IMG/VR virus record: IMGVR_UViG_2563366969_000006
DNA: 19,074 nt
DNA from: a virus
Lineage: Duplodnaviria; Heunggongvirae; Uroviricota; Caudoviricetes
Direction: 5' to 3' (one strand)
The notes under the pieces: model-generated
Told to the model about the DNA's origin: nothing
What the model saw: the letters and a program-made list of their open reading frames with translations, nothing else
Databases searched by the model: none
Made by a program: the position numbers and the translations under genes
Shown: one piece after another, positions 1,484 to 19,074 of the stretch
Position numbering within the stretch: position 1 is the stretch's first letter
How the letters are laid out: each line of letters begins with the position of its first letter

Positions 1484-1798
1484 TCACGATAGTTCCGTTT
1501 TGTTGAATTCAATTATATCAAGGTCAGAACTTTCGTAATCCTTACCGAATAAAGCAAAACATATCGCGTCAAGTTCTCTCTTATGTTTGGACGCCCGATC
1601 ATAATTACCACCCCAACAGCAAATGAATCCACCAAGTACTGCTGATTCAAAAAGTAATGATGCTGCATCAATATGTCTGAACCAGGAGTCTATAAGTAAA
1701 GCAGAGAGTGATATTAATGTTCCCCACCCGCCAATCCTTCTCCATTTCTCAGCTTCATATTTAAGAGAAGCAATATATTCAATTTTATCTCTCGTCAT
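1484..1798 (-). CDS. Small membrane protein (104 aa, two predicted transmembrane helices), last gene of the large operon; function unknown
   Basis: ORF with TGATG stop-start overlap to the upstream gene; two hydrophobic segments (IGGWGTLISLSALLIDSWF and ASLLFESAVLGGFICCWGG); lower GC than upstream genes. Confidence 0.6.
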   Translation of the reverse strand: MTRDKIEYIASLKYEAEKWRRIGGWGTLISLSALLIDSWFRHIDAASLLFESAVLGGFICCWGGNYDRASKHKRELDAICFALFGKDYESSDLDIIEFNKTELS

Positions 1799-4554
1799 CA
1801 GTTCCCCACCGCCTTTCCAAAATCCGGTGCTCTACGTGGCGCAATAGCACCCGGTTCCCACCAACTCGTTATGTCGAACTCCCGTTGCGCGCGGTCCCTT
1901 ACTCGATCATTGTAACCAGGGTTTGCCATCTCCTGAAGTTGTTGCAATATCAGGTGATTGGTTATCGCTTTCGCATACCACAGGTTTGCGAATGGGGTGA
2001 TCATGCGGGCTGTTTTCAGTGCATCGGCACCGAATGATGTTTCTTCACCCTGTAGAGCCTTCTGTGGGTTAGTAATCAGTAATTTTGTTAACTGCTCTGC
2101 AAAGCTCAACACAGGGCCACCCATAGTGGCACCGATGCTGGAGCCATATTGCGTATGGTCCTGGAAAATAAAATCACCGTAGATACCGAACGAACCACCT
2201 TTCAGTAAAGCCTGAACCCATGTGGTTGGTTTTGTCATATCCAGCGGATCATTACCATTTAACAAACTGTTCATCTGGATCGCAAACATACCAGCAAGAG
2301 TTGTTCCCCCGATATATGAGGCCAGAAATTTAATGGCCGGAACGGTGTCCAAATCCCGTGTTCTGTTAACAAGTTGCCGAAATCCAGCAAATGGGGTTGT
2401 TTTGAAGAGCATGAAGCTCTTCATTAACTCGCCAGCATCATCACGGGCATATGTATCAATACCCGTAGCGGTGGTCACAGCATTGGTCATCTCACCGTGC
2501 GTAATTCCCAGCAATTTCTGGGCTGCTTCAGCGCGTGCATTACGAATCATGCGCGTGATGGTCTGCTCAGCCTCAGCGTCGAATGCTTCTTTCATCCGTT
2601 TCAGGCGTTCTGGAGGGAGATCTCCAAGGGCTGCCAGTGCCTTTTCACTCCCGGCACGAATCCGGGTAATACGGTCTGCCATAATGTCGGCTATTACGTT
2701 ATCGGGCACAGCGTAAATCGCGTCTGGCGTCATCCCCATATGCCCGGCAGTAGTCATCGGCCTGAGTTCTGCCGCTGCCATGATGGCCCAGTCCTCATTG
2801 CTCCATCCCTTGTTAGCCAGAATGGTTTTATCGGTTCCTTTCATATCGTCCAGCGTCTTAAATTTTCTGGTCAGCTCGCCAATGTTTTTGTACATCAGGA
2901 GACCAAACGACGCTTTGTTTGCGCGGTCCATAGCGATCAGCCCGGACCACTTCAGTGTCTTCTCTGCGAACCAGCCAGTTATGCCGCGAGACAAGTCAAA
3001 CCCGCCCATTTTCGAAACCACAGCAGCATGTGAATCCACCAGCAGACCGAGTTCAGCATTCGCCTTTTTGGCATCTCCACTAAACAGGTTTTTGATAGTG
3101 TTAACGGAAAGCCGCATTCCACCACGGGTAAAGCCCAGCGCCTGCGCATTTGCCCGCATAATTGCCTGGTCGCTGGTTGCTGTCAGTACGCTGGTGCCAA
3201 GCATGGCGCTGGTCATCAGGTTACGCAGACCACCAACTGCTGAAGAGAACACACTCGATGAAGCGACACCATTTAGGCCAGCCATTGAGTTGAACATACG
3301 GGCAACTAATTTGGCCTCATCCTCCATTTCTTTTTTGCGTTTCCCGCCTGTTACTGCGCGCTTATAGATGCGATCCAGTACCAGGGAAAAGTTTCTTTCG
3401 GCGTCCGGACCAAAGGCTTTAACGACGCCCAAATCCCTGGATGATGATTGCAGGTGCGACATCATCACCCCCACCAGCGGCTGCTGAGTGTATCGTTCCA
3501 TATAGGCGAAGTGTGACTGCGCATCCTTGAACGCCATCACCCTGTGCTGAGAACCACGGCTCTTTATTCCTCCGGCTCCCATAAATGTACCAGGCTCAAT
3601 TTTGTTTGCCCCATCAGTGGCCTTCGTTTCAAAGATCGCTTCCAGTGCCTGACGGTACTCGACGTCATTCATAATGCTGCCGTCAGGATTAACGTAATTG
3701 CTGCGATCCTGCGTGTTGTAAGCGTCATCAACCCATTTCTGGCGGGCAAACTCAATCGGTGGCTGGCGACCTGAAAGACGTGCTGTAGCTTGCTCTGCCA
3801 CTGGTAACGATGCCAGCCATTCTTCGCGCCCGGCATTGCGAATAAGGTCAGCATCATCCACATATGGCGTATGCCAGTCTTCTCGCAGGCCTATGTCAAA
3901 GCCATTGTCGTTCATCTCATGACGAACACGGCCTGTTACATCCTTCCAAATCTGTGCAATTTTCTTCGCCAGGGGATTCCCGGTATCTTCGCCATATATT
4001 TCTTTCAGGATCTGGAGTTGTGCAGACTTTGCCGCCTGCCTGTCGAATACACTCCGAAACCGCTGCTCTCCAAGCGCCCTGCTCTGCTCGAAGAATTTGC
4101 GGACGTCATCACCTGCTTTTAGAAGTTCAGCACTGAGCTGACGGGACCAGTCCTGATATGCCCCAATTGCAAGTTCTTCAGCAGAAGTAACGGAGATATC
4201 AGCTTTGTCTCTCGATCGTCGGCCAGCAAAAATAAACTGCTGCAAATTAACAGGTGTCTGCTGATCAGGCGGGATGTTAGCATCGAGAGTGTCAGTAATT
4301 TTACTGATGGCGATCGCATTCTGGGCAACACGCTGTCTTTTCTTGTACACATCATGAACCACACGCTGGCGTACCAGTTCTGCTGCATCCATGTATGTTT
4401 GAGCATCAGGAATACCACTTTTGCCTTCTTTGGCATTCTTTCTGTGCACATGCTGCACAGCTTCTTTGATACGATCTTCAATATTTTTCAGCTCATCAGC
4501 CTTTGGCTGGCGACCAAGTGTCTGCGCAATAGCTTCCACACATGCCTGTTTCAT
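1798..4554 (-). CDS. Large hypothetical protein (about 918 aa), Gly/Ala-rich hydrophobic stretches, no NTPase motif; possibly internal-virion/ejection-like
   Basis: Long ORF. Likely start is the ATG at 4552-4554, preceded by GAGGAA and in a TAATG overlap with the upstream stop, rather than the unsupported ATG at 4575. No Walker A found on reading. Confidence 0.75.
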   Translation of the reverse strand: MKQACVEAIAQTLGRQPKADELKNIEDRIKEAVQHVHRKNAKEGKSGIPDAQTYMDAAELVRQRVVHDVYKKRQRVAQNAIAISKITDTLDANIPPDQQTPVNLQQFIFAGRRSRDKADISVTSAEELAIGAYQDWSRQLSAELLKAGDDVRKFFEQSRALGEQRFRSVFDRQAAKSAQLQILKEIYGEDTGNPLAKKIAQIWKDVTGRVRHEMNDNGFDIGLREDWHTPYVDDADLIRNAGREEWLASLPVAEQATARLSGRQPPIEFARQKWVDDAYNTQDRSNYVNPDGSIMNDVEYRQALEAIFETKATDGANKIEPGTFMGAGGIKSRGSQHRVMAFKDAQSHFAYMERYTQQPLVGVMMSHLQSSSRDLGVVKAFGPDAERNFSLVLDRIYKRAVTGGKRKKEMEDEAKLVARMFNSMAGLNGVASSSVFSSAVGGLRNLMTSAMLGTSVLTATSDQAIMRANAQALGFTRGGMRLSVNTIKNLFSGDAKKANAELGLLVDSHAAVVSKMGGFDLSRGITGWFAEKTLKWSGLIAMDRANKASFGLLMYKNIGELTRKFKTLDDMKGTDKTILANKGWSNEDWAIMAAAELRPMTTAGHMGMTPDAIYAVPDNVIADIMADRITRIRAGSEKALAALGDLPPERLKRMKEAFDAEAEQTITRMIRNARAEAAQKLLGITHGEMTNAVTTATGIDTYARDDAGELMKSFMLFKTTPFAGFRQLVNRTRDLDTVPAIKFLASYIGGTTLAGMFAIQMNSLLNGNDPLDMTKPTTWVQALLKGGSFGIYGDFIFQDHTQYGSSIGATMGGPVLSFAEQLTKLLITNPQKALQGEETSFGADALKTARMITPFANLWYAKAITNHLILQQLQEMANPGYNDRVRDRAQREFDITSWWEPGAIAPRRAPDFGKAVGN

Positions 4555-6614
4555 TATGGGTTCCTCAAGAAGCACGCTGCTGCTACAGAATAAACCTTCG
4601 ATTCGTTCTGGACTGTCTTAATCTGTTCATCCAACTCAGCCAGGAGATCAGAAAGTTTTGTCGGGTTTCCGGTTTCCGGGTGAGCTATAGTCAGCTCAGG
4701 ATTGGCAACAGCCATGTCCCTGGCAGCCATAAGGTCATAGCTGTTGGATGAGAGAACCTGCCCTGTATCTGGATCAACGCTGATGTCCCCTCTGTGTTCA
4801 CCAGCCGATGAGAAAGCACTTTCAGCACGAGGGACAGGCGATTCACTAATTGGCTCTGATGATGTTTCGTATCTGACACCATTTTCTTCAAAAACCTTTT
4901 GTATTTCATGGTATTGCTCTTGGTAAGTATCAGATATATCTGATCGCAATGGACCATCAAGCCCTCGCGCCATCCCCCCAACATTTACAGGCTGACCATC
5001 ATTAAGTTGCCTGTATGCTTCATCCATGGCGTCAACATGGCTGTTGATGCTCTCATTGCTGGTATGAAGCACTGGTGACGATTCAATATCGTAATGAAGC
5101 CCCTCATTCAAAATGTGGGCTGCATCAATATCGCTTGGTTTTATTCTTTCCCTCGCCCGGATACCAAAAACTTTTTCTACTGCGGCTTCCAGTTTCATAT
5201 TGCGAAGACGCATACTTACGAGTAACCGTAACTGCTCAGGTGTAACGGTTCCAACCTGAATACCACTGTATCTGAATATATAGGCTTTAAAACCTGAAAT
5301 AATTTTTTCCCATGATGAAACGCTTGTCTTTAGAGATGGATTTACTGCATGTGCGGCAACTTCTTCAGCGTACAACCACTCAGGATATGTTTCAGGGTAC
5401 TCACCCCTTTTCTTATATTCATAATATTGTGACATCCCATATGCAAATTCAGGATAGTCAGAATGCTTGTTTGCAGATTTAAGTACAGCATTAGCTAGCT
5501 TTCTGGCCTTCCAGTCAGGGTAATGGCGCTGCTCAAGATGAAGCGCCTCGTGATGAAGGGTTTCTAACAGTTCTTCATGGTCTTTTAATCCATTAATATT
5601 TATTCTTATTATTGGTTCTTTTCCGGAAGCTACTGTCACATGACCTTTATTCAGAAGTATTTCTCCATCACTATTTTTTATTGCTGGTTCATTAATAAGT
5701 TCTATTACTCCTGAATCAGATAAATCACGAACCATTGACTCAATGTTACCATCAGGAGATTGCTGATAATGTTCACCAAAAGTTGATTTTATTTCTTCTG
5801 CAGAAATGTTCGACTCTGTACCATCATGGTTATTATGGGTAGTCAGGTGATGAACGCCACCAAAGACCCCGCCTAAAACGGCATCGACTAACATCGCCTG
5901 ACCGTCAAATACCCGGTACTGTTTTGCCATCTCCGTGTAGCCTTTTTCCTCCAGTGTTGCGCCTACTGAGTAACGGTTCAGTCCACCGAATCCGGTGTTG
6001 ATTGCCACACCTGAGGCAATGCGCGTTGCCAGTGTGGTGCCGACGGCAGCGGGTAAGGCCATACCCACAGCATTGAAAAGGCTCTGCTGCGTTGCCAGGT
6101 TACGCGCTGTAGCCTCGTCTACTCCCTTCCCTTTAAAATCCTGATAGGACTGCTCATACGTAGAACTGAAGGCTGTAGCAGCGCCGATGAGCGGACCACC
6201 AAACATAGTTGTTCCGATTGCAGGAACAAATTTACCAAGCTCATTTAATACCTCAGCCGCCATTCCCTGGCTGCCTGCATCAGGCTTCACATAGCTGCGG
6301 GCATCCTGTAACTGTTTTCCGATCGTGTCGTATGTATCATTCAGTGTTTTGTCAGCATCAGGGAACATCTCCCGAAAAATATTAACTGTCGGTGCCACGT
6401 CTGCGGTAAATGCCGGATCGCTAATCAGACGCTTGCTGAATCCGACGGCAGACTGCGCGAGACCGAGAGCCCCCTCCGCCACGCCGCTCAAAAGTGCAGT
6501 ACCTGAACCCTGGAAGGGAGTCGGATCGTAGTCTTCTGGCCTTGCTGGGTTGGCAACTGTTTTGTCGTCAATCCATGCCTGACCTTCTGGAGCCAAAGAA
6601 AAAACATCAGACAT
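4554..6614 (-). CDS. Large hypothetical protein (686 aa) with an HExxH (HEALH) zincin-like motif and Gly/Ala-rich hydrophobic region
   Basis: Long ORF; TAATG overlap with the upstream 843-aa gene; GAGGG ribosome-binding site; ETLHHEALHLEQRH encoded around 5534-5560; no P-loop. Confidence 0.75.
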   Translation of the reverse strand: MSDVFSLAPEGQAWIDDKTVANPARPEDYDPTPFQGSGTALLSGVAEGALGLAQSAVGFSKRLISDPAFTADVAPTVNIFREMFPDADKTLNDTYDTIGKQLQDARSYVKPDAGSQGMAAEVLNELGKFVPAIGTTMFGGPLIGAATAFSSTYEQSYQDFKGKGVDEATARNLATQQSLFNAVGMALPAAVGTTLATRIASGVAINTGFGGLNRYSVGATLEEKGYTEMAKQYRVFDGQAMLVDAVLGGVFGGVHHLTTHNNHDGTESNISAEEIKSTFGEHYQQSPDGNIESMVRDLSDSGVIELINEPAIKNSDGEILLNKGHVTVASGKEPIIRININGLKDHEELLETLHHEALHLEQRHYPDWKARKLANAVLKSANKHSDYPEFAYGMSQYYEYKKRGEYPETYPEWLYAEEVAAHAVNPSLKTSVSSWEKIISGFKAYIFRYSGIQVGTVTPEQLRLLVSMRLRNMKLEAAVEKVFGIRARERIKPSDIDAAHILNEGLHYDIESSPVLHTSNESINSHVDAMDEAYRQLNDGQPVNVGGMARGLDGPLRSDISDTYQEQYHEIQKVFEENGVRYETSSEPISESPVPRAESAFSSAGEHRGDISVDPDTGQVLSSNSYDLMAARDMAVANPELTIAHPETGNPTKLSDLLAELDEQIKTVQNESKVYSVAAACFLRNP

Positions 6615-9145
6615 TATTCAACCCTCACGACAATAGCTTTATTGGTTCTGGGATCTGTTGCCCAGCGTCCGCTACCATTTACAAGCCGATACCGGTTATT
6701 GCCGATATTAACTGGCGTGAAATTTGACACTGCATTTACGTTAAGTCCGGCATCTTTCAGTGCTTGTTTCGCAGATGTGGTATAGCGATCTTTGAAAGTA
6801 GATTTATCCATGCCAAAAGGCATTACAACGTCGCCGCCATTAAAACCATTGTATATACCGCCAGTAGCATACTTCACGGCATCAGCTACAATGTCTGTAT
6901 CAGGCATACTGGTTCTTACCGTAGAGGCATCACCAGATTGATAAGCTATTCCTGCGTAAGCGGCTTTGAAAAGGCTATAACTGATCTGGCGTAACTGCGG
7001 GTTACGGGCAAATGCATTACCTACCTGTTCGTCGAAAGCGTCTTTCATCTTATCTTCGCTCGGCAACTGTACCGGAGTTATGCCCGCATTCTTCATGGCC
7101 TTCGTCGGATTCAGTAGTTGGTCGCCGGAAAGAATAACCTTTGCAACGTCGTACTTGTTCATCGTCGGCTTATACCCGATGAACTGACTATATGGGATCG
7201 TCGGCCTGGTGTTGTCGTACTGGTTATCCGGCGTGCCCAGCAGCAGCGCAGAATAGGCTGTTGCCGCACTGTTCGGAGCAATTACAGATGCCACCTGCCG
7301 TATTGCTGGCGCAGGCAGCTTCTCCCCCATGCTCTGCAACAGTTTAATTGTCTGGTCAACGTTCTGAGTGCCGCGCACCTGCTGTGCCAGCGCAGCCGCC
7401 TCTTCACTGTTGAGGAGTGGGGCATTAATTCCCAACGCGCGTAAGCTTTCCTGCGACGAGAAACGGTTAGCCACCTCGGCAGTGATGTCGTCAGGGTTGT
7501 TGCTGGTGATCGGCTTATAGGCTCCGATTTCCACCGCTGCACTAAACGGATTATTCTGCCTCTGGGTTATTACCTTCGTGGCTGCCGCCGATACCCGGTC
7601 GAATAACTCCGCACGAGACGCATACCCCTCCCCTGTCTCACCAGTATCCGGGCGTAATTGCTCAACATATGCGGTAATGCTGCTTGTCGGCATGTTGCGG
7701 AAAGAGCCTATATACTGTCCGGCGATCTGCAAATTTCTGAACTCGGTATATCGCAGGTTTCCTTCTCTGACACCATAAGCAGCAATGAACTCACCCTCAC
7801 CAGGCGGGTTAGGAAATTCAACGCCACGCATATACGCAGCCGTTGCATCGCGAACCCGGCTTTCGAGCATCGTTCTATATTCAGCCTGCTGCTGTCTGGC
7901 TAATGCATCCGTCTGTCGCAACACGCTGGCCTGATCTGATTCACTTAAAGCATCGAACCAGGCTACACCGGTATAACGTTTATTTTTTGTCGGTAGCTGA
8001 GAAAGCCCCAGTGCGGCACTAACGCCAGCGGCCAATTGCTGATCACTGTACGGCTGACTGCCTTGCTCATGATGAATAATTGCTTTGCACAGAGATTTCA
8101 GTGTGTCAGGATTTGATGCGTCAAGCGGCTGGTCAGGAGTTACACCGAGCTGAGCACATACTGCCCGTATATAAGCATCAGTTTTATTATCATCACTGGC
8201 CGGTGCCCAGCGATTAATTATTTCGCTGATGGTGTCATAACCCTGACGCTGATACGACAGCAAATTGCGACCAAGCGCGCGAATACCGTGTTCAGGGGTT
8301 TCGAATTTGGCAAAGCGACCATCATCACCAGTCTGCCCAACCCACGGATTAGTTTTGCTGTATTCAAGATTGCCGGGGTTATTGTTGCGTATACCGCGGG
8401 TACGATCGGAAGAGCCACTATCTGCTACAGCACGGCGAGATCCAGCAGCAGTATCGCTTAACTCGCCATTTTGCTGTCTTACCTGAAGATAGTTTGCTCC
8501 AATAGCATTTTGAGCAGTTGCTTTTGCTGTTGCTTCTTTAAACTCGATTTTCTTGGCCTGGATTTGCTCGTCGCTCCAGCCATGCGCAATACCGTAATCC
8601 TCAATTTGCTGGAAAGTTTGCGTATTAGCCAATATGTATGCTGCGTTGTCGCCATATAATGCTGAGGCATTTTTACCATTATTCAGCAGTGTCGCCTGAA
8701 ACTGGCCTTCTTCGTAGGCATTTATTTGCCCTATCTCGTACCTCCCGGCCTGCGTAGCGAACTGAATACGCTGCTGCTGCGCCTGCTGCATGAAAGCATT
8801 ACGAGCCTGTTCATCCGGCAGCGACATAGCCAGTTGTTCGATCTGAGCATCAAACTGCTGTGTATACTCATGGCCTTTTCCAATAGCATTTTTCCCTTTC
8901 AGGTTAAGCAATCCTGTTTCAGGATTATTCAGCAGATCACTGCCTGTCTGACTGAGTTTAAGGGATGCCTCCTGAATCAAGGCAATATTGGCACGCTGTT
9001 TTGCCTGACCAAAAACATCAATTGCCTCTGCCCCTGCCCGAACAAAAGCATCACCAATACCTGGCTGAGAAAACGTCTGCAAGCCTGCTGACTGAACTCC
9101 ACGGCTCTCAACCTGACGTCCGGATACTGTTGGTACGACTGGCAT
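6614..9145 (-). CDS. Large hypothetical protein (843 aa), Gln/Ala-rich, with a conserved-looking block GIRNNNPGN...W.G...G.FA.F (possible peptidoglycan-hydrolase-like or virion-associated domain; unverified)
   Basis: Long ORF with a strong AGGAGG ribosome-binding site 6 nt upstream of the ATG; motif block encoded around 8155-8395; no P-loop. Confidence 0.75.
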   Translation of the reverse strand: MPVVPTVSGRQVESRGVQSAGLQTFSQPGIGDAFVRAGAEAIDVFGQAKQRANIALIQEASLKLSQTGSDLLNNPETGLLNLKGKNAIGKGHEYTQQFDAQIEQLAMSLPDEQARNAFMQQAQQQRIQFATQAGRYEIGQINAYEEGQFQATLLNNGKNASALYGDNAAYILANTQTFQQIEDYGIAHGWSDEQIQAKKIEFKEATAKATAQNAIGANYLQVRQQNGELSDTAAGSRRAVADSGSSDRTRGIRNNNPGNLEYSKTNPWVGQTGDDGRFAKFETPEHGIRALGRNLLSYQRQGYDTISEIINRWAPASDDNKTDAYIRAVCAQLGVTPDQPLDASNPDTLKSLCKAIIHHEQGSQPYSDQQLAAGVSAALGLSQLPTKNKRYTGVAWFDALSESDQASVLRQTDALARQQQAEYRTMLESRVRDATAAYMRGVEFPNPPGEGEFIAAYGVREGNLRYTEFRNLQIAGQYIGSFRNMPTSSITAYVEQLRPDTGETGEGYASRAELFDRVSAAATKVITQRQNNPFSAAVEIGAYKPITSNNPDDITAEVANRFSSQESLRALGINAPLLNSEEAAALAQQVRGTQNVDQTIKLLQSMGEKLPAPAIRQVASVIAPNSAATAYSALLLGTPDNQYDNTRPTIPYSQFIGYKPTMNKYDVAKVILSGDQLLNPTKAMKNAGITPVQLPSEDKMKDAFDEQVGNAFARNPQLRQISYSLFKAAYAGIAYQSGDASTVRTSMPDTDIVADAVKYATGGIYNGFNGGDVVMPFGMDKSTFKDRYTTSAKQALKDAGLNVNAVSNFTPVNIGNNRYRLVNGSGRWATDPRTNKAIVVRVE

Positions 9146-9573: not shown

Positions 9574-9813
9574 CTGTGCTTACTTCTGGTAGTTACGCCA
9601 TACTGATTTCCCGATCCCATCTATCCCCATTTCTTTTTCAGTGCGTTTAAGCGACCGTTTCAGGTCTTCTAAATTATCCGGTTGCTTCGGTGGCCTCTGC
9701 GCCTTCCTGGAACATTCCAGTCGTCGCATTGATATGTAATACCGTTCCTTGTCAGTTCCCCAACTGCATTACTTCACCCCATCGCGCCGCCGCTCTTCGG
9801 TACAGGGTTTTAG

Positions 9814-10230
9814 TTAGCCTCCGACTCTTCCGTAGTGCTGTTCTGGTGGATTCACATAGCCCCTTTCTTGCAGGTATTCGCGAATATCAGACATCAGGAG
9901 ACGGTTAACCGTGCTCTTGTCTTTTCTCCGGTAAAGGCGTCTGGTGATCATGAAGTAGTTAGCAATGATCTCCGGTATATCCCTGACGCTGATACATGCT
10001 GTATGCTGGTCAATAGCTTCAATCATCTCTTCACGAGTTACAAAAGTCTGGCGTAAACGAGTGATCACACCATGTACATCTGAATGATCATTTATACGCT
10101 TATTTTGGCGCTTCGCGCTCTCGACTGTGACACTGACAACAATGTCAACTCTTTGTTTTTCCGCAATTTCATCCACAATGTGATCACCTGCACGGCGACC
10201 ATGTGCGTGATCATTTCTTACTATTTCCAT
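9814..10230 (-). CDS. Hypothetical protein (138 aa), His-rich N-terminus
   Basis: ORF with GGAGGAG ribosome-binding site; overlaps the 3' end of the ProQ/FinO gene by 20 nt; no family recognised. Confidence 0.5.
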
Positions 10231-10708
10231 TCATCTCCTCCAGTAGTTTTCCTGCGTGCGTCTGTTGTAGTGGTGTTACCTCGCCGCACGGCTGGCCTTT
10301 CAGGTCGTAACGCGCGCCACCAGCTACCAGGGCGCGGTAATAGCGCGGAGTCTGCACATAACGCGCCAGCGTTGCGCGTAGTGTTCCCTGTCCGAGTGAA
10401 ATACCTCTCGCGGCAATATCCTGTATCAGGTCGTCAAATATCCCCACCTTAAGCGGCTTAGGTGATTCCTGGCTGAATAATTCAGGCCATAGCTCAATAA
10501 GACGGTTAACGCGTCTGCGGTTTTTACGCTGCTGTTTGGTCATACGCCGCCGCGGTGTTGCTCCTGTGAGCTTCTGCTGTGTGTTCTGGTTATCTGGCAT
10601 CACTTTATGCGCCGATGTGGTTTTATTCTGCTGCTGCGCCGCCTGTGCTGTTTTCTGCGGCGTGCCGTAAATGCCCTTCGGTTTTCTGTTTATGGTCAGC
10701 TTTGTCAT
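10211..10708 (-). CDS. ProQ/FinO-family RNA-binding protein (165 aa) with a basic N-terminal extension
   Basis: The segment [60 protein letters not shown] aligns by eye with the ProQ N-terminal FinO domain (LKIGIFQDL...LRSALRLYTSSWRYL...RVDLDGNPCGE). Confidence 0.7.
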
Positions 10709-10744
10709 GCCTTCCCCTGTAATTACTCTGTTCGCTGTTGTGAA

Positions 10745-11170
10745 TTAAAACGGTATCCCGTCCCCGTACGGATCATCGTGCTGGCCTGTCTGTTGCTTTG
10801 CCCTGTTCAGTGCATCAGTAGCCTGCCCCTGCTGGCCTTTTTTGCCGCCCGGTCGCGCCGTTCGCGCACTGATTACGCTGTCTGCGATAACCTGCCATCC
10901 CTGCCTCGTTTCGCCGTTCTGGCCCGTCCACCGGCTCACCTGCATGTTACCGGCCACGCTCACCAGTTCGCCTTTGTGGTGTTTTGCCAGTGCGTCAGCC
11001 TGTCTGCCAAACGCCAGGACGGATAACCACATCGTCGCCGTTCCGTCATCTGTCTGATTGCATGGAAGGGGGACCGCCATACTCGCCATCGCCATTTGTG
11101 TGCCCTTGCTGGTGGTCTTTAACTGCGGGTCAGCCACCAGCCGCCCGTAAGCTGATATTTGCGCCGTCAT
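10745..11170 (-). CDS. ssb: Single-stranded DNA-binding protein, divergent short form (141 aa)
   Basis: OB-fold-like N-terminal region, Gly/Gln-rich linker and an acidic C-terminal tail ending DDPYGDGIPF, comparable to the SSB DDDIPF tip; GGAGAA ribosome-binding site. Confidence 0.7.
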   Translation of the reverse strand: MTAQISAYGRLVADPQLKTTSKGTQMAMASMAVPLPCNQTDDGTATMWLSVLAFGRQADALAKHHKGELVSVAGNMQVSRWTGQNGETRQGWQVIADSVISARTARPGGKKGQQGQATDALNRAKQQTGQHDDPYGDGIPF

Positions 11171-11232
11171 GCTGTTTGTTCTCCGGTTTTAACGTGATAG
11201 TTACGCTTGTTTACACTCTTACAGTGAAATTT

Positions 11233-11358
11233 TGCGGGTTACAATCGCACATTTGCGGGTTATAACTGCCGTTTTGCGGGTTACGTGCGGGTTATTAATT
11301 TCCTTTTTAATCATTCAGTTAATTAACTTATGCACAGGATAACCCGCATAACCCGCAA
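11233..11358. repeat. Iteron cluster B (putative origin): TGCGGGTTA at 11233-11241, 11254-11262, 11275-11283 and 11286-11294 (21-bp phasing), AT-rich spacer, then inverted ATAACCCGCA copies at 11339-11358
   Basis: Seen directly; lies immediately 3' of the primase/helicase-like gene; same 9-mer as cluster A. Confidence 0.75.
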
Positions 11359-11380
11359 CTTTTTACCTCACACAGGGAAG

Positions 11381-13507
11381 TTAATCTTCTGCTTCAGGCT
11401 GGAACATCAGCACGTAAAAAATATGTTGCTTCCCGCCAATCCTGCCGAGCGCCTTTTTCTTGTAACGGCGGTCGCCTCCCGCTTCCAGCATTCCGGCTGC
11501 ACTCAACGCGCGGGCAAAGTGAGACGGATTAAATCCCTGTGCTATCTCACCCTCAAACACATGCGGGAACGTGTAAAAACGGAACTCGTCATCTTCGTTT
11601 CTGATACTCCCCTTTCTGTATCCGGCAAGGTCTTTAATCGGTAAATCACGCTCGTCGCTGTTTGGATAGGGAAGGTATCGACTGAACCCGAACGACGACA
11701 AAAACGCCTCAGCCTGTTCAACCATCTGTTTAAATTCCCTGTTGCCCGTGCCGAATTCCTTCACCCAGGCATTAAAGTTATGCTGAACTGCATCACGGCA
11801 CGCCTGAACATCCCAGCCTGTAACATGACCGGAAAGCACAAGCGCGGCCTCCAGTACGGCGAATCTTTCCCCCACACGGTGAACCTGCTCGCCGTAGCTC
11901 TCCGGTATCAGGTTGCGCCACCGCTCGCGACATGCCCTTACCGCGTCCTTTGCCTCCTGCTGGTGGCCTGCCAGCCATTTAACCCACTCACGACCTGCCG
12001 CCCCGTGATTTTCTGTCCAGGCATCTTTTAACGCGTCTGCGTGCGCCTTTCCGGTGCTGTATTCGTGAAACTGCGAGGCCTTTTCCATCGGTACGTTAAG
12101 CAGACGGACAAGCTGCCCCGCTTTAATTTTTATCCCTTCCGTTTTGAGGAATGTTTCAACGTCCATTTCTCCGGTGCTGATTGCCACCGTGCGCCAGTGT
12201 TTTATCTCCCTGTTGCCGCCGTCCTTCGCCCCCTGTAATTTCCCGGAACCGTTAAACAGCGTATAGGCTGACGTGGACACCTCCCGTGCGTTTCCGGCCT
12301 GGCCTATTTCATCCAGGGGTAACAGCCCGTCATTATGTGCTTCGGCCTCGTTGGCGATACCTAACGCCGTTCCGTACCAGGTCAGCCGTTGCGCGTCCGG
12401 CTCTCCCCATAAACTTGATGCAATGTTCTGTGTGGTGGTTTTACCTGCTGATGATTGCTCAAAAAGATGAACCCCGAAGCCGTCAGCACCCACCAGCCCG
12501 ATTAATGGTGCAGATAGCGATACCGCCACACCCAGCATCATGGACGGATTACCACCAGCCAGCCGTGCCACGGTATCGCGCCAGCCCTCCGCTGTTCCCG
12601 CCACGGAATAGCCATTAACAGCGGCAGTTTTTCCGGTAAACAGGATGGGTTTCTCTGATTCACCGATGATCGAACCATCCGGCATGATGTACGCACCAAA
12701 ATGCCACCCCGTTGTTGTGCTTAACTGCCATTCCTCATGGTTTCCGCTTAACTGCATCCAGTCAGCCAGGATAGCCCTGTATTTGCCGTTGGTCGTCACG
12801 TTAAGGCCGTGGTCTTTCAGCAACCGCCAGCCGTCACGGTCACCAATGCCTCCGCACGGGACCGCCATTGTAATGACCTCATGGTTTGCTGGTTTTTTCC
12901 AGCGCATCACGCGGTAATGCTCTTTGCCGATTGTTCCTGTTCCCAGTAGTTCAAGCGGAGAACATAACCACGTCTCAGGCCGGATAATTTCGCCTGACTG
13001 CTTGTCCACTTTGGGCGTTACCCAGAAAACACCATCGACGCGACTTTCAACACGAGGCTTTAATTCGTCATCATAATTTCCGGTGAAATTTGTCTTCGCC
13101 GGAAGGTTGATCACCAGACTGTTACCGCGTTCCGCATCATACTTCAGTCCAGCCATGCGCGGAGTCCAGTCCTCCGGCTGCTGATCAACAAAGCTGCGGT
13201 AGCAACGCGCCTCCTTCACACCCGCCACTGCAAGCAGTGTCGCTATCTGTGTAAGGTGCTGCTCTGATATTTCACCAGCACGATAAATGCGCACGTAATA
13301 GCGTCCTTTGTCGATGATTTGCGTGTCTGCCAGACTCGCCAGTTGTTCCGGTCCAAGAATAACTGGATGTGTATCATCTGCCGCAATATGCTTTCCGGCC
13401 CATTCGCTCCACTCTTTCGCATGTGCCCAGGCATCACTACCCGCAAAGATAATCACCTCCGTCATTTTGTCTTTCGGCTGGTGCTTTAAATTCGGTGCGC
13501 GTTTCAT
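11381..13507 (-). CDS. Replication protein, primase/helicase-like (708 aa; P4 alpha-like role, DUF927-type P-loop helicase domain)
   Basis: Walker A-like SSAGKTT and Walker B-like LLPLDE in the central region; ATGA start-stop overlap with the upstream gene; adjacent iterons. Confidence 0.65.
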   Translation of the reverse strand: MKRAPNLKHQPKDKMTEVIIFAGSDAWAHAKEWSEWAGKHIAADDTHPVILGPEQLASLADTQIIDKGRYYVRIYRAGEISEQHLTQIATLLAVAGVKEARCYRSFVDQQPEDWTPRMAGLKYDAERGNSLVINLPAKTNFTGNYDDELKPRVESRVDGVFWVTPKVDKQSGEIIRPETWLCSPLELLGTGTIGKEHYRVMRWKKPANHEVITMAVPCGGIGDRDGWRLLKDHGLNVTTNGKYRAILADWMQLSGNHEEWQLSTTTGWHFGAYIMPDGSIIGESEKPILFTGKTAAVNGYSVAGTAEGWRDTVARLAGGNPSMMLGVAVSLSAPLIGLVGADGFGVHLFEQSSAGKTTTQNIASSLWGEPDAQRLTWYGTALGIANEAEAHNDGLLPLDEIGQAGNAREVSTSAYTLFNGSGKLQGAKDGGNREIKHWRTVAISTGEMDVETFLKTEGIKIKAGQLVRLLNVPMEKASQFHEYSTGKAHADALKDAWTENHGAAGREWVKWLAGHQQEAKDAVRACRERWRNLIPESYGEQVHRVGERFAVLEAALVLSGHVTGWDVQACRDAVQHNFNAWVKEFGTGNREFKQMVEQAEAFLSSFGFSRYLPYPNSDERDLPIKDLAGYRKGSIRNEDDEFRFYTFPHVFEGEIAQGFNPSHFARALSAAGMLEAGGDRRYKKKALGRIGGKQHIFYVLMFQPEAED

Positions 13508-13806
13508 TTCTTGCCCCTGAATGCGTTAATCATGTTCTTTATTACCTGAATATTTGCCCGTGCTTTCTCTTTACTGGTGGGCTTACTGCGTGGTGCTGCA
13601 CATACCAGTGAAAAATCACGCCGGAACTGATGAACGGGCATCACACAGTCATAGTCGTACCCTGCGCGGCGGTATGTAATGTGCCGTTCATACACGGAAT
13701 TAATAACCACGCTGTCGCCATATTTATCCCGGAAAATATCCCCGATCCTGATTTTCGGATGAGTCTGTCCGCTGGCATTTAAGCCAGTAAATTTAATCTT
13801 CTTCAT
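13504..13806 (-). CDS. Hypothetical protein (100 aa) directly upstream of, and coupled to, the replication gene
   Basis: ORF with ATGA overlap to the primase start; occupies the position held by epsilon/orf151 in the P4 operon (position analogy only). Confidence 0.5.
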   Translation of the reverse strand: MKKIKFTGLNASGQTHPKIRIGDIFRDKYGDSVVINSVYERHITYRRAGYDYDCVMPVHQFRRDFSLVCAAPRSKPTSKEKARANIQVIKNMINAFRGKK

Positions 13807-13808
13807 GT

Positions 13809-14066
13809 TTATTTCCCGGTGTGAGGTTCTTCTTTATATTTATGGGCTAACAAATCTGGTAATTGCCTGTATTTATCCTCGGCAATATATTCAGAATAAT
13901 CGACAGCACTGTTCAGTATATCTAACGCCGTTTCATGCTCCAGATTCGAAACTATAAGGAACGTTGCTACTTTTAGCATATTCGCGATATGCAAAAGAGC
14001 ATCAATTTCATTTTTTGGCGCTTCACTGAATTTTTGCTCCAGAAGAATAAATCGTTCATCACGCAT
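13809..14066 (-). CDS. Hypothetical protein (85 aa)
   Basis: ORF with AGGGGGAA ribosome-binding site; start overlaps the stop of the upstream 67-aa gene by 8 nt. Confidence 0.5.
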   Translation of the reverse strand: MRDERFILLEQKFSEAPKNEIDALLHIANMLKVATFLIVSNLEHETALDILNSAVDYSEYIAEDKYRQLPDLLAHKYKEEPHTGK

Positions 14067-14262
14067 AGTATTCCCCCTGACGGATGCGAGCAGTAAATAC
14101 CATCACGCAGCCAGCCGGGGATTGCTGACGGGCTTTCTGTTCGCTGGTGGCCTCGATGTGGATTACGCGCGGTTGTGCCGTGCTCAGGGCGATAAAACGC
14201 CAGATGTATTTATTCAGGTTGTGCGAGTCCCGCCCTTGCGGGTGTGTGGTATGATTTAACAT
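14059..14262 (-). CDS. Hypothetical protein (67 aa), first gene of the replication operon
   Basis: Internal ATG at 14260-14262 preceded by GAGGT; this is the C-terminal part of an implausible 386-aa ORF in the track. Confidence 0.45.
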   Translation of the reverse strand: MLNHTTHPQGRDSHNLNKYIWRFIALSTAQPRVIHIEATSEQKARQQSPAGCVMVFTARIRQGEYYA

Positions 14263-14343
14263 AGCTACCTCGATACGCTTTCTATCGTTGGTGGTTAGAC
14301 GCCCTGCATGTGTTGCGAGCACTGCGGGGCGTTGCTCTTTCAG

Positions 14344-14425
14344 GTGTATTTCACCTTTGCTTTTTAATTTACTCACTGGTGAAATACACTTCAAGCCTTT
14401 TTTTATCATTTTTTTTGCGTATACT
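14344..14425. promoter_or_regulatory. Divergent promoter/operator region: perfect 12-bp inverted repeat GTGTATTTCACC (14344-14355) / GGTGAAATACAC (14378-14389); candidate minus-strand promoter (-35 TTGAAG, -10 TAAATT) and plus-strand -10 TATACT (14420-14425)
   Basis: Inverted repeat seen directly; promoter hexamers are by-eye matches to consensus. Confidence 0.5.
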
Positions 14426-14455
14426 GACATACACCAATTTTTAGGAGATCCAGAA

Positions 14456-14635
14456 ATGGCAACTGGTGCAAAGAACGCAAAATCACAAATGACAACTGTC
14501 AGAATCCCACATGAAGTAATGGATGATATTGAGCAACTTAAAGAACCTGGCGAAAGTACCGCTGGTTTTTTAGTTACTGCCGCAAAAGGCGAGATCAAAC
14601 GCCGCCAGCGTCGCAAGGCCAAAGAGCAGGAGTAA
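14456..14635 (+). CDS. Small putative DNA-binding regulator (59 aa), possibly ribbon-helix-helix-like
   Basis: ATG at 14456 with AGGAGA ribosome-binding site 8 nt upstream; N-terminal TTVRIPHEVMDDIEQL resembles a beta-strand-helix RHH start; only plus-strand gene block in the island. Confidence 0.5.
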   Translation: MATGAKNAKSQMTTVRIPHEVMDDIEQLKEPGESTAGFLVTAAKGEIKRRQRRKAKEQE

Positions 14636-14692
14636 CCATCACCAGCGCCGTGGTGCGGTGAACTGTGGCGCACAGGGTTACAGGTATCTACG

Positions 14693-14890
14693 ATGACTGA
14701 CAAATCATTAAAGAAATTATCCTCATCCAGGAAAAAACAACGCAAAAATGCGGTAAGCGAACAAGAACAGGAAAGATTTGCGCCATGTGCGTTTGTCCTT
14801 GAGAAGTTCTTAAAAGAGTACAGGCGCACAAAAATGGAATCGCATACCTGGAAAACATCGCAGTATGGCGATGCTAAAGAGCAGGAATAG
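14693..14890 (+). CDS. Small basic hypothetical protein (65 aa)
   Basis: ORF downstream of the 59-aa gene, weak ribosome-binding site; shares a duplicated 3' end (AKEQE-stop) with it; followed by a terminator. Confidence 0.35.
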   Translation: MTDKSLKKLSSSRKKQRKNAVSEQEQERFAPCAFVLEKFLKEYRRTKMESHTWKTSQYGDAKEQE

Positions 14891-14980
14891 CCCACCAGCA
14901 AGCCAGCACACTGATCACATTGCCCACCAGCCGCAAATCTGGCATTGTTGGCGATGCGTTTGATTTCCTTTGTTCCCACT

Positions 14981-15008
14981 GGCGACCTATCCCGGTCGCC
15001 TTTGTTTT
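14981..15008 (+). terminator. Rho-independent terminator for the plus-strand small-gene unit
   Basis: Stem GGCGACC / GGTCGCC with 6-nt loop followed by TTTGTTTT; convergent with the Bro-N gene. Confidence 0.65.
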
Positions 15009-15058
15009 GCCTGTTATCCAGCAACGGGGCGCTTTTTCTTTCTGTAACGTTCGGATCG

Positions 15059-15616
15059 TTACACATTGCTTTCACCCTCCAGAAAATCAGGCTGATATTT
15101 ACGCCATAGCGCCCGCTCTTCTCGTTCCAGTGCATCTTTTGCCTCTTTGCATTGCTGTAACCTGTAACCGCGTTTGCTGGCTTCCTGTTGATATGCAGCC
15201 TGACGTTTACTGAAATCATTCAGCATGGCAAACGGAACACCATAACCCCCCGTTTTGCGGATTGAAGGAATCACCTCGCGGAATACCCAGTTACTGAAAC
15301 GGTGCGCAAATGTGCCTGGTGTGGAAGCTTTACGGCTGCGGACGATCAGTTTGTAGAAACCTGATTCAGAGACAACATTCCAGCTTCTGGCACCACCACG
15401 CTTACCGGAATGCCCCTCGGTTAAAGCTAGGGTCATTACCTCGTCGTTATCCAGAACTGAAACAGCATCAGTAACATTGCTGATTTCCTGCGCAGCACAC
15501 ACATCAGCGCCAACAAACCACGGCTCGCCGTTGATACTCACTATGCGCACCTGAATGTCATCGAATTTAATGACAGAGATTTCAGTGCGCCCGGCATAAA
15601 AGACAGGTTTACGCAT
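15059..15616 (-). CDS. Bro-N domain protein (185 aa), putative antirepressor
   Basis: N-terminal region (F.D..VRIVSINGEPWFVGADVCAA ... SGFYKLIVRSRKASTPGTFAHRFSNWVFREVIPSIRKTGGY) matches the Bro-N pattern from memory; GGAGGT ribosome-binding site; start overlaps the stop of the upstream gene. Confidence 0.7.
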   Translation of the reverse strand: MRKPVFYAGRTEISVIKFDDIQVRIVSINGEPWFVGADVCAAQEISNVTDAVSVLDNDEVMTLALTEGHSGKRGGARSWNVVSESGFYKLIVRSRKASTPGTFAHRFSNWVFREVIPSIRKTGGYGVPFAMLNDFSKRQAAYQQEASKRGYRLQQCKEAKDALEREERALWRKYQPDFLEGESNV

Positions 15617-16433
15617 GGCTGCTCACCTCCATGCGGCGGGCTAACCAGCGTTGCGAAAGGCGAATTAATTCAGCTTTCCGCTGGTGGTAGTCCAGGCCTA
15701 ACTCAATCAGCGTGATATTGCTCTGCTCAAGGTAAGAAAGGTGCTCAAGCTGCAACACGCTCATGTGGTCGCGTGGTTCACCTGTGATGCCGTTCGCCTG
15801 CGCCCACTGTTTTGCAGTCATGCCACCCAGCACGATACGCGCCAGCATATTAGCTTCCGTAGTGTAGTGGTGCTGGAGCGTGTTTTTACCCAGTTCAGCC
15901 CGGTACGCCTCCAGCGCGGCACACATTGGCTTAAAGTAGCTGGCTACGGTGATACGGGCTTTCAGTTCCCGGCGTAACGCTGCGGAACGTACAGGCGCTA
16001 CCTTGTGTAGCTCCTCCTCGCATTTGATGAAGTACTGACGAACGGCGCGGCCCTGTTCGGTGCGTTCGATCATTGCCAGTTCTTTCGCCATTCCGACACT
16101 TAACAGATAGTCTTTACCGGGTCTGCCAGAGTGCTTAATCTTGCTGTAAGCCTCGCCATTCGGGCTTTTCCCCAAATTTGGGGAAATTGTTTTATGGACT
16201 GAGTAATCGTACCCAATGGTGAAGTCATATTCAGAGATACGATCAGTGATCCATGTAGAGAAGTCTTTTCCCACGCCCAACGCTTTGTGTAACGCTTTTG
16301 CGCTAACAACAGCGGCTTCACGCCCGCCAATAACGCCGGAAATAACCGGGATAATTTCGCCGAAATTTTGCAGATTCTGGTTTTCAGGCCGAACAAAGCC
16401 CTGCCCCTGTACGGGCGTTTTTCGCAGTTTCAT
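15609..16433 (-). CDS. AntA/AntB-like antirepressor family protein (274 aa)
   Basis: N-terminal segment (AVVSAKALHKALGVGKDFSTWITDRISEYDF) resembles the AntA domain; GGAG ribosome-binding site 5 nt upstream of the ATG. Confidence 0.55.
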   Translation of the reverse strand: MKLRKTPVQGQGFVRPENQNLQNFGEIIPVISGVIGGREAAVVSAKALHKALGVGKDFSTWITDRISEYDFTIGYDYSVHKTISPNLGKSPNGEAYSKIKHSGRPGKDYLLSVGMAKELAMIERTEQGRAVRQYFIKCEEELHKVAPVRSAALRRELKARITVASYFKPMCAALEAYRAELGKNTLQHHYTTEANMLARIVLGGMTAKQWAQANGITGEPRDHMSVLQLEHLSYLEQSNITLIELGLDYHQRKAELIRLSQRWLARRMEVSSHA

Positions 16434-16508: not shown

Positions 16509-16706
16509 TCAGGCAGCCGTTCCGCGTGATTCGGCAATACGCTGATTGATCCATTCGTCAATTTCACTTTCAACGAAAGCAATCGCTCGCGAGCCAATTT
16601 TAACTGATGCAGGAAATTTACCTTGCCCCATAAGGCGATAAATCCATGCCTTGCTATATCCAGTTCTACGCTGAACTTCTGTTAAACGAATAAGCGTATT
16701 TGACAT
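16509..16706 (-). CDS. alpA: AlpA-family transcriptional regulator / excisionase-like protein (65 aa)
   Basis: Size, position next to a P4-type integrase, and pattern (LTEVQRRTGYSKAWIYRLMGQGKFP...ESEIDEWINQR) characteristic of AlpA. Confidence 0.8.
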   Translation of the reverse strand: MSNTLIRLTEVQRRTGYSKAWIYRLMGQGKFPASVKIGSRAIAFVESEIDEWINQRIAESRGTAA

Positions 16707-17859: not shown

Positions 17860-19074
17860 TCATCCACATTTTCCGAACTTGCCATGCACCACGTTGCCGC
17901 CCTGTTCCAGTGAGTCCATATAGTCGGCGTACCACTGGAGCATCTCGCGCCGCCCGTCCAGATATTGCGCATGATTGTACGTGCCACGAATTGAGTTCTT
18001 ATCAACGTGTGCAAGCTGCGTTTCTATCCACGCGGTGTTATAGCCCTGCTCATGTAAAATCGTGCTCATCGTGTGCCGGAACCCATGACCAGTAACGCGC
18101 CCAGAATAGCCAATACGACGAATAAGCACGTTCATCGCCATTTCACTCATCGGCTTACTGTGCTGGATTCGACCAGGGAAAATAAACTGATACTGCCCCG
18201 TCATGTGTTTTAACTGTTCCAGAATAGCGATCGCCTGTTCTGAAAGCGGCACACAATGAGGACGGCGCATCTTCATTCGTTCTTTAGGCACTTCCCACAA
18301 ACGATTATCAAAATCGATCTCCTGCCATTCTGCCTGTCGTAATTCCCCTGGCCGGAGCCCTGTCAGAATCAATAATCGCATACCCAGCTTGACGATCTGG
18401 CTTCCGGTGTACGTATTAAGAACGCGGAAAAATTCCGGCAGTTCGTCGGCCTTCAAATAGGCATAATGCTCTTTTTTGTGTGGAGCAAATGCGCTTGCCA
18501 GATCTGGTGCGGGGTTATATTCAGCGCGTCCGGTGATGATTGCGTACCGGAACACCTCGCCGCATCGCTGGCGAACCTTACGCAATTTTTCGGTCGCCCC
18601 ACGGTCATTAAGACGGGAGAGAACCGCAAGCAACTCCATTGGCTTAATTTCTGCGATCGGCCTGCCGCCAATGTACGGAAAAACGTCTTTTTCAAACGTC
18701 TCGATCATTTCCTCGGCGTATGACGATGACCACCTGTCGATCCTCTTTTCATACCATTCGCGAGCGATACCCTCAAAAGTATTGCCAAATTTGCTCGCCT
18801 GTTCTCGCTTTTGAGCTTTTCTGGCCTCACTTGGATTTATACCACCAGCAAGAAGCCTTTTAGCCTCATCCCTTGCCGCTCTGGCATCAGACAGAGACAC
18901 ATCAGGGTACACGCCCAACGACAACATTTTGGGCTTTCCTGCAAATCTGTAACGTAGTCGCCACCCTTTCGAGCCGTTCGGCTCAATGAGTAACGAAAGC
19001 CCGTTACCGTCATTGAGTGTATAAGCCTTTTCTTTCGGCTTCGCGCGCCTGATAGCAAGGTCTGAAAGCAGCAT
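17860..19074 (-). CDS. int: Tyrosine recombinase, P4-family integrase (404 aa)
   Basis: N-terminus LSDLAIRRAKPKEKAYTLNDGNGLSLLIEPNGSKGWRLRY and C-terminal catalytic region HGFRHTMST...LAHVDKNSIRGTYNHAQYL follow the P4/CP4-57 IntA pattern; start codon coincides with the window end. Confidence 0.9.
   Translation of the reverse strand: MLLSDLAIRRAKPKEKAYTLNDGNGLSLLIEPNGSKGWRLRYRFAGKPKMLSLGVYPDVSLSDARAARDEAKRLLAGGINPSEARKAQKREQASKFGNTFEGIAREWYEKRIDRWSSSYAEEMIETFEKDVFPYIGGRPIAEIKPMELLAVLSRLNDRGATEKLRKVRQRCGEVFRYAIITGRAEYNPAPDLASAFAPHKKEHYAYLKADELPEFFRVLNTYTGSQIVKLGMRLLILTGLRPGELRQAEWQEIDFDNRLWEVPKERMKMRRPHCVPLSEQAIAILEQLKHMTGQYQFIFPGRIQHSKPMSEMAMNVLIRRIGYSGRVTGHGFRHTMSTILHEQGYNTAWIETQLAHVDKNSIRGTYNHAQYLDGRREMLQWYADYMDSLEQGGNVVHGKFGKCG

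Follow-up and report, generated by a model that had tools for sequence, protein, structure and literature searches.

The sequence considered here is a stretch of 19,074 nucleotides (nt) from the IMG/VR virus record IMGVR_UViG_2563366969_000006 (Caudoviricetes), which we refer to throughout as the window. Its interval 14263-15008 had been described in an earlier note, made from the letters alone, as an immunity or derepression switch built around a single inverted repeat. We interpret this interval as the control region of a phage-satellite island, i.e. of a Gram-negative phage-inducible chromosomal island (PICI) that is related to P4 and inserted at tRNA-Gly. In this island a 59-amino-acid (aa) ribbon-helix-helix (RHH) protein of the YlcI/YnfO family quite probably silences the operon of an icd-like gene and a primase gene and autoregulates its own, with a probable antisense layer. 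The idea of a switch is upheld insofar as a survey of 116 loci and a fold prediction point to a repressor switch on the replication operon, but its anatomy has to be revised, and the interval also holds a conserved candidate antisense RNA on the plus strand (14262-14343) that the note had missed. The elements at issue are as follows.

14343-14355: O1, candidate operator GGTGTATTTCACC, left arm of the repeat, at about +6 to +17 from the predicted leftward start
14378-14390: O2, candidate operator GGTGAAATACACT, right arm of the repeat, inside the 17-nt spacer of the leftward promoter
14425-14435: O3, candidate operator TGACATACACC, an imperfect third copy covering the last base of the rightward -10 and the predicted +1
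14366-14394, minus strand: P(left), predicted promoter with -35 TTGAAG (14394-14389), 17-nt spacer and -10 TAAATT (14371-14366), predicted start at ~14359
14397-14425, plus strand: P(right), predicted promoter with -10 TATACT (14420-14425) and, as a degenerate -35, a T-run at ~14397-14403, predicted start at ~14432
14456-14635, plus strand: 59-aa YlcI/YnfO-family RHH gene, proposed repressor, with the Shine-Dalgarno sequence AGGAG (14443-14447) 8 nt upstream
14250-14343, plus strand: candidate cis-antisense RNA, with the -10-like TATGAT at 14250-14255 and a predicted transcript of ~80 nt (~14262-14343)

The perfect 12-bp inverted repeat on which the earlier note was founded is indeed present, since GTGTATTTCACC (14344-14355) and GGTGAAATACAC (14378-14389) are perfect reverse complements with 22 bp between them. 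No other perfect 12-bp inverted repeat with a loop of up to 40 bp exists in the window, and an equivalent repeat arose in 21 of 500 dinucleotide-preserving shuffles. The repeat alone is therefore modestly unlikely, and the case rests on conservation. Judged from the arrangement of its copies, the element is a triad of putative operators acting as DNA and not one palindrome; the note, which had treated the repeat as a single element, had overlooked O3, its overlap with the rightward -10 and the autoregulation that this overlap would entail. The sites share the form (G)GTG-N5-CAC(C), are 11-13 bp long and have constant flanks. O1 is inverted with respect to O2 and O3, and its reverse complement has at most one mismatch to O3. 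Exact matches to TGAMATACAC in the 19-kb window are confined to O1, O2 and O3, all within a 92-bp stretch, and further operators sought across the island were not found.

Comparison among related loci shows that this triad is a regular feature. Loci were gathered via the 59-aa protein (32 from one-genome-per-species contigs, 6 from assemblies and 80 from IMG/VR), and an automatic site search was run on 116 loci, the window counted, with the 11 nt from the last T of the rightward -10 as the reference site. In every one of the 116, exactly two further copies of the reference site lie upstream of it. Within the first set (the window and 35 contig or assembly loci) these copies have 0-2 mismatches, the sole exception being O2 of locus L019 with four, and the next-best match is at three mismatches in L037 and at 4-6 in each of the other 35 loci. 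The triad was replicated in the 80 IMG/VR loci, where those with Ala12 and Lys14 in the protein (A12/K14) have three mismatches on the reverse strand as listed and two after a 2-nt register correction. Positions are likewise stable: O2 points the same way as O3, and in nearly all loci its start is 76 nt from the ATG (range 75-78) and ~45 bp from that of O3. O1 is found at -99 to -116 in either orientation, with a site there in 116 of 116 loci.

The centre of the site, by contrast with its constant flanks, is variable, and at least 11 N5 centres occur (AAATA/ACATA, AACAC, TCTTA, AATGC, GACTC, TGGCC, AATCG, AATAG, TCAGC, ATACA and GCACC), each common to all three copies within a locus. Drift would not be expected to alter three separated copies in concert, and the pattern indicates that one specificity determinant reads the sites. 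Different operator types may occur in one host, as in a Pectobacterium brasiliense strain with two islands (L007 and L027, of the MTTV and LQVSV types), and two loci of a single type, L059 and L060, share one IMG genome; given the latter pair, a need for different specificities in co-resident islands is not established.

The survey also bears on the possibility that the repeat arms act as an RNA stem-loop, whether as an attenuator, a terminator or a pairing element of the P4 seqA/seqB type. The arms could pair around a 22-nt loop, a weak terminator-like hairpin on the plus strand (14342-14356) falls within the left arm, and immunity in the P4 family is RNA-based. In the AACAC, TGGCC, AATCG, TCAGC and GCACC groups, however, O1 and O2 are direct repeats, which are unable to form a hairpin; the inverted orientation in the window's group is thus incidental, and the element would act as DNA. 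Besides, the predicted leftward start falls between the arms, a third copy sits on the other promoter, and no match to the Rfam families C4, isrK or a1b1 was obtained even at E up to 10. We consider an RNA stem barely credible and reject it on account of the direct-repeat loci.

The triad keeps a fixed geometry relative to two sets of promoter elements. The earlier note had placed the repeat between back-to-back promoters, and divergent promoters are indeed predicted, with their -35 regions back to back and ~3 bp apart; the repeat, however, does not lie between them, its arms overlapping the leftward promoter. At the -35 position of P(left), TTGAMG is kept in 33 of 35 distinct loci, followed by TAnnnT 17-18 nt further on, and the spacer is filled by O2. 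In groups with short spacing, O1 begins on the last base of the leftward -10, as O3 does at the rightward promoter. The -10 of P(right) stands at -36 from the ATG in all loci (TATACT nearly everywhere, otherwise TATAAT or CATACT), O3 always starts on its last T, and in other specificity groups a -35 of TTGATT, TTGAAT or TTTACA is present 16 nt upstream. As the operators lie on P(left) at two places and on P(right) at one, their occupancy would mean repression of the former together with negative autoregulation at the latter.

The same geometry could be read differently, with the protein mainly an activator or a dual regulator which, bound at O2, activates its own promoter, repression setting in only once O3 is highly occupied. 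O2 and O3 are spaced by close to 45 bp in every locus, with the O2 centre at about -47 from the rightward start. The window's group lacks a good rightward -35, and the three-operator layout resembles lambda OR, with lambda CI at PRM as a parallel. Yet the TTGATT or TTGAAT of other groups lies at the right distance, so that activation would be unneeded there, and O2 sits squarely in the leftward spacer, a repressing position. Activation as the main role is in our opinion unlikely, and it is a refinement of the repressor model rather than an alternative to it.

The 59-aa open reading frame (ORF) on the plus strand was found where the earlier note had reported it, and its description there as RHH-like is supported by a family profile and a predicted fold. 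The protein scores 64 bits against NF041551, the YlcI/YnfO family (cut-off 30), with residues 9-50 on profile positions 1-42. The predicted fold has the strand-helix-helix topology over ~45 residues that defines the RHH superfamily. Among structures it is most similar to the CopA(SO) antitoxin (6iya, score 5.9), followed by the PutA RHH-operator complex (5.5), AmrZ-DNA (5.1), HicB and the omega repressor (4.8 each) and Arc (4.5), with lower scores for TacA, NikR, TraM, ParD, TraY and ArtA. Foldseek together with sequence and profile searches against the PDB yielded nothing meaningful, tblastn against 50,697 phage records gave no match, and no Arc or MetJ Pfam match was found at E up to 0.1. 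Literature searches recovered no published function for the YlcI/YnfO family. The K-12 namesake YlcI of prophage DLP12 (L044, 4252-4446) is ~20% identical over only 25 residues, and in that lambdoid prophage its gene stands near the cos region, divergent from nohD. This context is quite different, and the family name is consequently uninformative on function here.

In alignments the C-terminal half of the protein is highly conserved. It includes, at the end of helix 2, the stretch EIKRRQR (residues 46-52), of which E46, I47, K48, R49, R50 and R52 are invariant in a 31-sequence alignment spanning several specificity types; possible roles of this stretch are cooperativity between dimers, contact with flanking DNA and recognition by an inducer. 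On the strand, Arg16 is invariant while positions 12 and 14 vary; in an RHH strand all three face the same side. These two residues partition the operator types without exception, as follows (residues 12/14, then the site).

M/T: TGA(A/C)ATACAC
L/T: TGA(T/A)ACACAC
S/T: TGTCTTACAC
Q/S: TGAACACCAC
Q/N: TGAAT(C/A)GCAC
Q/V: TGAATGCCAC
K/Q: TG(G/T)ACTCCAC
K/E: TGTCAGCCAC
K/S: TGGCACCCA
A/K: TGTGGCCCAC

Over all 630 pairs of loci compared, the O3 centres differ by at most one base where residues 12 and 14 are the same (229 pairs) and by at least two where they are different (401 pairs). The gene adjoins its sites, and this association is therefore in part co-inheritance. A link beyond co-inheritance is nevertheless indicated by two observations. 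Firstly, the Q/S type occurs with identical sites in Serratia, Rouxiella, Pectobacterium, Xenorhabdus and Salmonella, with the rest of the protein diverged. Secondly, Salmonella has a natural chimera in P0120, a protein with 26 N-terminal residues of the LQVSV type; over the 28 residues from G32 to the end it has two differences from the MTTV-type P0002, and its relative P0105 has none. The P0120 loci carry GTGAACACCAC three times, those of P0002 GTGTATGTCAC and GTGAAATACAC.

These results narrow down what could bind the sites. A different binder, such as AlpA, the icd-like protein or a host factor, would leave the 59-aa protein with another role, e.g. that of an antitoxin or an excision cofactor. 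The perfect partition of specificity by two beta-strand residues of the 59-aa protein, including the N-terminal chimera, speaks against this, and so does the first gene of the leftward operon, which varies among loci with identical sites. As to an antitoxin, what follows the RHH gene changes from locus to locus (a 65-aa unknown here, TumE/HVO_A0114 in some of the Salmonella loci, no gene at all in others), so that there is no constant cognate toxin gene in the operon and it does not qualify as a type II toxin-antitoxin system. We regard another binder as quite improbable.

Alternatively, the sites could be iterons of a replication origin, bound by the island's primase-helicase. The alpha protein of P4 binds type I repeats of the P4 origin, and P4 has short repeats in ori and crr, which we take to be TGTTCACC and which resemble GGTGAACA of the AACAC-type sites; moreover, the sites adjoin the replication operon. 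Against this, one site type stands beside three unrelated replicases (DUF927, D5_N/DUF5906 and a RepA-type helicase) and one replicase family beside different site types, the sites are locked to promoter elements, and there are three copies only, with none elsewhere in the window. Since site type is independent of replicase family we reject iterons, which appear very improbable.

Next to the operators lies a second candidate regulator. On the plus strand, 14262-14343 is predicted to fold into three helices, namely an outer helix around a small hairpin and a long G+C-rich hairpin (14296-14334) followed by a U-rich tail, the last two constituting a terminator. The minimum free energy is -38 kcal/mol (z -5.1), and RNAalifold returns the same three helices. 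Over 36 sequences, 92.7% of cells are paired (slid-partner controls 35-48%), double, i.e. compensatory, changes occur in 11 of 18 pairs, and the covariation score of 0.337 (0.128 in shuffles) was reached by none of 500. Cells with G.U number 58 on the plus strand versus 3 on the minus strand, the outer helix adding 33. This bias indicates that the structure is selected in a plus-strand RNA, antisense to the leader of the icd-like gene.

The predicted transcript is complementary to the leader, the Shine-Dalgarno sequence and the start codon of the icd-like mRNA. Its -10-like element TAnnnT lies inside codons 3-5 of the icd-like gene, with the terminator ~80 nt further downstream. Of 36 aligned loci, 35 retain this element, T3 and T8 being invariant and A4 almost invariant, while the encoded amino acids vary; in the window TGG precedes TATGAT. 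The interval 14262-14343 is conserved even in islands without this repressor, and a covariance model (R1) scores 78.9 bits in the window and 64.7 bits (E 1e-13) in the island EcCICFT073, which was outside the training set. No Rfam family corresponds to the candidate, and Rfam searches for immunity RNAs gave chance-level matches only, e.g. to ToxI and the R1162 antisense RNA. The alternative is a plain insulating terminator; it is disfavoured by the conserved 5' helices and -10 element, and on balance we lean towards a discrete small RNA.

Taken together, these data suggest the following mechanism. The 59-aa gene would encode an RHH repressor of the YlcI/YnfO family, which would bind the three (G)GTG-N5-CAC(C) operators, its beta-ribbon (residues 12, 14 and Arg16) reading the N5 centre. 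Occupancy of O2 and O1 would shut the icd-like/DUF4222/primase-helicase/SSB operon and prevent replication of the island, and occupancy of O3 on the -10 and +1 of the repressor's own promoter would lead to negative autoregulation. A second, post-transcriptional layer is likely, in which the ~80-nt RNA would block translation of the toxic icd-like gene, with a polar effect on the operon. For induction we propose, speculatively, that AlpA-dependent transcription of alpA, ant and bro continues leftward, reading the repressor gene in antisense and then crossing the operators. The genes alpA, antA and bro do precede the replication operon on its own strand, with the repressor unit embedded between them in the opposite direction. 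The rightward terminator is one-directional and no terminator-like sites were found on the minus strand anywhere in 13800-15400, and none between bro and the icd-like gene, so that leftward read-through is possible. In Pseudomonas aeruginosa AlpA is an antiterminator (PMC7969949), and AlpA-modified antisense read-through would, speculatively, fit the induction of EcCICFT073 by AlpA alone.

Several points weigh against this account. The entire analysis is computational. The structure model is that of a monomer, the dimer and its DNA contacts being inferred; a dimer with paired N-terminal strands in the major groove that set the specificity, as in RHH proteins generally, has indirect support from the co-variation of the alternate strand residues 12 and 14 with the N5 centre and from the invariance of Arg16 and of the GTG/CAC flanks. 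The co-inheritance of gene and sites accounts for part of their association. P(left) matches the consensus at 8 of 12 positions, below the threshold of the consensus scan, no -35 is recognisable at P(right) in the window's specificity group, and in the window the antisense terminator has a discontinuous U-tract (UUGCUCUUUC). AlpA is an activator of EcCICFT073, where its over-expression alone triggers replication (PMC6092414), so that the RHH protein is not alone in the regulation and does not necessarily dominate it.

The surrounding island accords with these conclusions in its gene content. The window is 100% identical to E. coli chromosomes over the 2.3 kb compared (13400-15700), and in matching chromosomes an island of ~19 kb adjoins a tRNA-Gly gene. 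Its other features, from the integrase end, are the following.

17860-19074, minus strand: tyrosine integrase gene, adjoining tRNA-Gly
next after the integrase from the right, minus strand: gene of a 265-aa unknown protein
16509-16706, minus strand: AlpA gene
beyond alpA from the right, minus strand: AntA/AntB protein gene
beyond the AntA/AntB gene and before the plus-strand pair, minus strand: Bro-N protein gene
14981-15008, plus strand: intrinsic-terminator-like hairpin GGCGACC/GGTCGCC, then TTTGTTTTG, ending the rightward unit
14693-14890, plus strand: 65-aa gene of unknown function, the second plus-strand gene (phrog_21027, E 1.9e-44)
14059-14262, minus strand: icd-like (P4 kil-like) gene, head of the leftward operon (NF033153, 66.5 bits, cut-off 25)
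downstream of the icd-like gene, minus strand: hypothetical 85-aa gene, then DUF4222 gene
11381-13507, minus strand: DUF927 primase-helicase gene of the leftward operon
beyond the primase-helicase in the leftward operon, minus strand: genes of SSB, ProQ/FinO and a frameshifted PerC

Two statements of the earlier note about the rightward unit proved accurate. RefSeq annotation of a 100% identical E. coli chromosome agrees that the 59-aa and 65-aa genes are the only plus-strand genes of the island, and the unit has its own terminator in the G+C-rich hairpin and T-run given above. The 65-aa protein had no match in a Pfam search, and its place is taken by other genes or by none in relatives; the gene is variable cargo of the rightward unit.

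The gene kit matches Gram-negative PICIs and P4 relatives (PMC6092414, PMC10111431, PMC11773190). With the integrase by tRNA-Gly, AlpA, AntA, Bro-N, the DUF927 primase, SSB and PerC, the layout is that by which Gram-negative PICIs are recognised, i.e. integrase and AlpA at one end, a primase/replication module, no lysis or tail genes, a size of ~10-20 kb and a specific att site. No packaging or capsid genes were recognised in the island. Nor are sid, delta or psu, which P4 carries at 9583-11460, annotated in it, so that it is not a P4-like satellite in the sense of SatelliteFinder.

Directly downstream of the integrase gene, on its alpA-facing side, lies an int-alpA RNA motif (Rfam RF02996; 17748-17815, minus strand; 46.9 bits, gathering score 35.8). 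The frameshift in the gene of the PerC-family regulator is at 9580-9805 of the window (10181-10406 in the annotation of L001), and the PerC-like protein of the related island EcCIMP1 represses the LEE virulence locus (PMC11773190). At 1484-9145 on the minus strand are three large ORFs in translational coupling (843, 686 and 918 aa), which follow PerC in the long leftward operon, as well as an ORF of 104 aa. None of the four had a Pfam or PADLOC match at E up to 0.001; they are cargo of the island, possibly a defence system.

The control region as such is of a well-known sort and involves no new principle, its interest lying in the candidate PICI repressor and in the orthogonal pairs. The RHH gene, absent from the original annotation, is a concrete candidate for the missing repressor of Gram-negative PICIs, and, if the model is true, a function would be assigned to YlcI/YnfO, among the E. 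coli genes of unknown function. The natural repressor/operator pairs differ mainly at two residues and five base pairs, which suits the study of RHH recognition and the design of orthogonal parts. A wider proposal, which we put forward tentatively and consider somewhat less likely than not, is that many Gram-negative PICIs and P4-related satellites, including EcCICFT073, may be kept quiescent by a YlcI/YnfO RHH master repressor with a two-residue code and at least 11 orthogonal immunity types, backed by the cis-antisense RNA. The two together would replace the C4/CI RNA, and AlpA would induce by antisense transcription through the repressor gene and operators.

Among known satellites, the closest in gene content are the Gram-negative PICIs EcCICFT073 and EcCIMP1, which share with the window's island the integrase, AlpA, Ant/Bro, the icd-like gene, DUF4222, primase, SSB and PerC. 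In strain CFT073 the YlcI/YnfO gene of EcCICFT073 (C_RS30120, A12/K14 type) lies between alpA and the primase operon, divergent from the icd-like gene. Two copies of GGTGTGGCCCAC precede the YlcI/YnfO gene, TGTCCCCCACC lies on TATACT, and the antisense-RNA motif is also there (module at L126 10474-10855; NC_004431 ~1380473-1380854). EcCIMP1 and P4, checked for both the RHH gene and the antisense-RNA covariance model R1, have neither. The 'Bro zone' of Gram-negative PICIs has been described with Bro-network proteins plus immunity RNAs only (PMC10111431), and our literature searches found no description of an RHH/operator module or of C_RS30120. Of 5426 complete E. coli genomes, at least 581 contain no less than 80% of the switch region, at up to seven places per genome.

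Other RHH-like genes occupy the equivalent position in further islands. An O157:H7 AC-5 island (L041, 3060-3288) has an unannotated 57-aa RHH-like ORF with a weak Arc-like match and GGTAATTACC twice, and an STEC383 island (L042, 3080-3334) a 64-aa RHH-like ORF with a weak HicB-type match and GGTGTACAC three times, both genes adjoining the same icd-like leader and antisense module. With such genes and their own repeats at the same place, the control module upstream of the icd-like gene appears exchangeable, being a C4 RNA, a YlcI/YnfO RHH protein or another RHH protein as the case may be.

P4 itself, with its CI RNA, and P1 with c4 likewise have a module directly upstream of an icd/kil-like gene that heads an operon ending in primase, and P4 shares with the present island the logic of an RNA that keeps the icd/kil-like gene untranslated (here predicted). 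The region upstream of the icd-like gene in P4 scores 74.9 bits for C4 (RF01695), 60.8 for isrK (RF01394) and 44.1 for c4-a1b1 (RF03163); in the window these families had no match in 14000-15100 at E up to 10, nor anywhere at Rfam gathering thresholds. Whereas the RNA of P4 is trans-acting and processed from the same transcript, the candidate regulators here are a protein repressor and a cis-antisense RNA from the opposite strand. Stl of the SaPIs and Rpr of Gram-positive PICIs resemble the repressor proposed here in being repressors encoded divergently from the replication module that keep a satellite quiescent, but they are larger and unrelated, run in the same direction as int and are induced by the binding of helper proteins.

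Further parallels, drawn from established knowledge and fold similarity and not from family membership, come from phage P22 and from plasmids. In P22 immI, Mnt and Arc are RHH repressors at divergent promoters (Pmnt/Pant), as proposed here, but in the window a single protein with three similar sites would control a replication operon and not an antirepressor gene. The omega repressor of pSM19035 (inc18) binds as an RHH dimer to short asymmetric units in either orientation, its units being contiguous 7-bp heptads, whereas the present sites are 11-13 bp long and 24-45 bp apart. The closest mechanistic analogue is plasmid copy control, where CopG (RHH) and RNA II of pMV158 combine a repressor with a countertranscript on a replication operon, other such pairs being CopB with CopA in R1 and CopR with RNA III in inc18 plasmids. 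The arrangement described here differs from these in that the repressor gene is divergent and not co-transcribed, that the element is an integrated satellite and that the predicted RNA would target an icd/kil-like gene.

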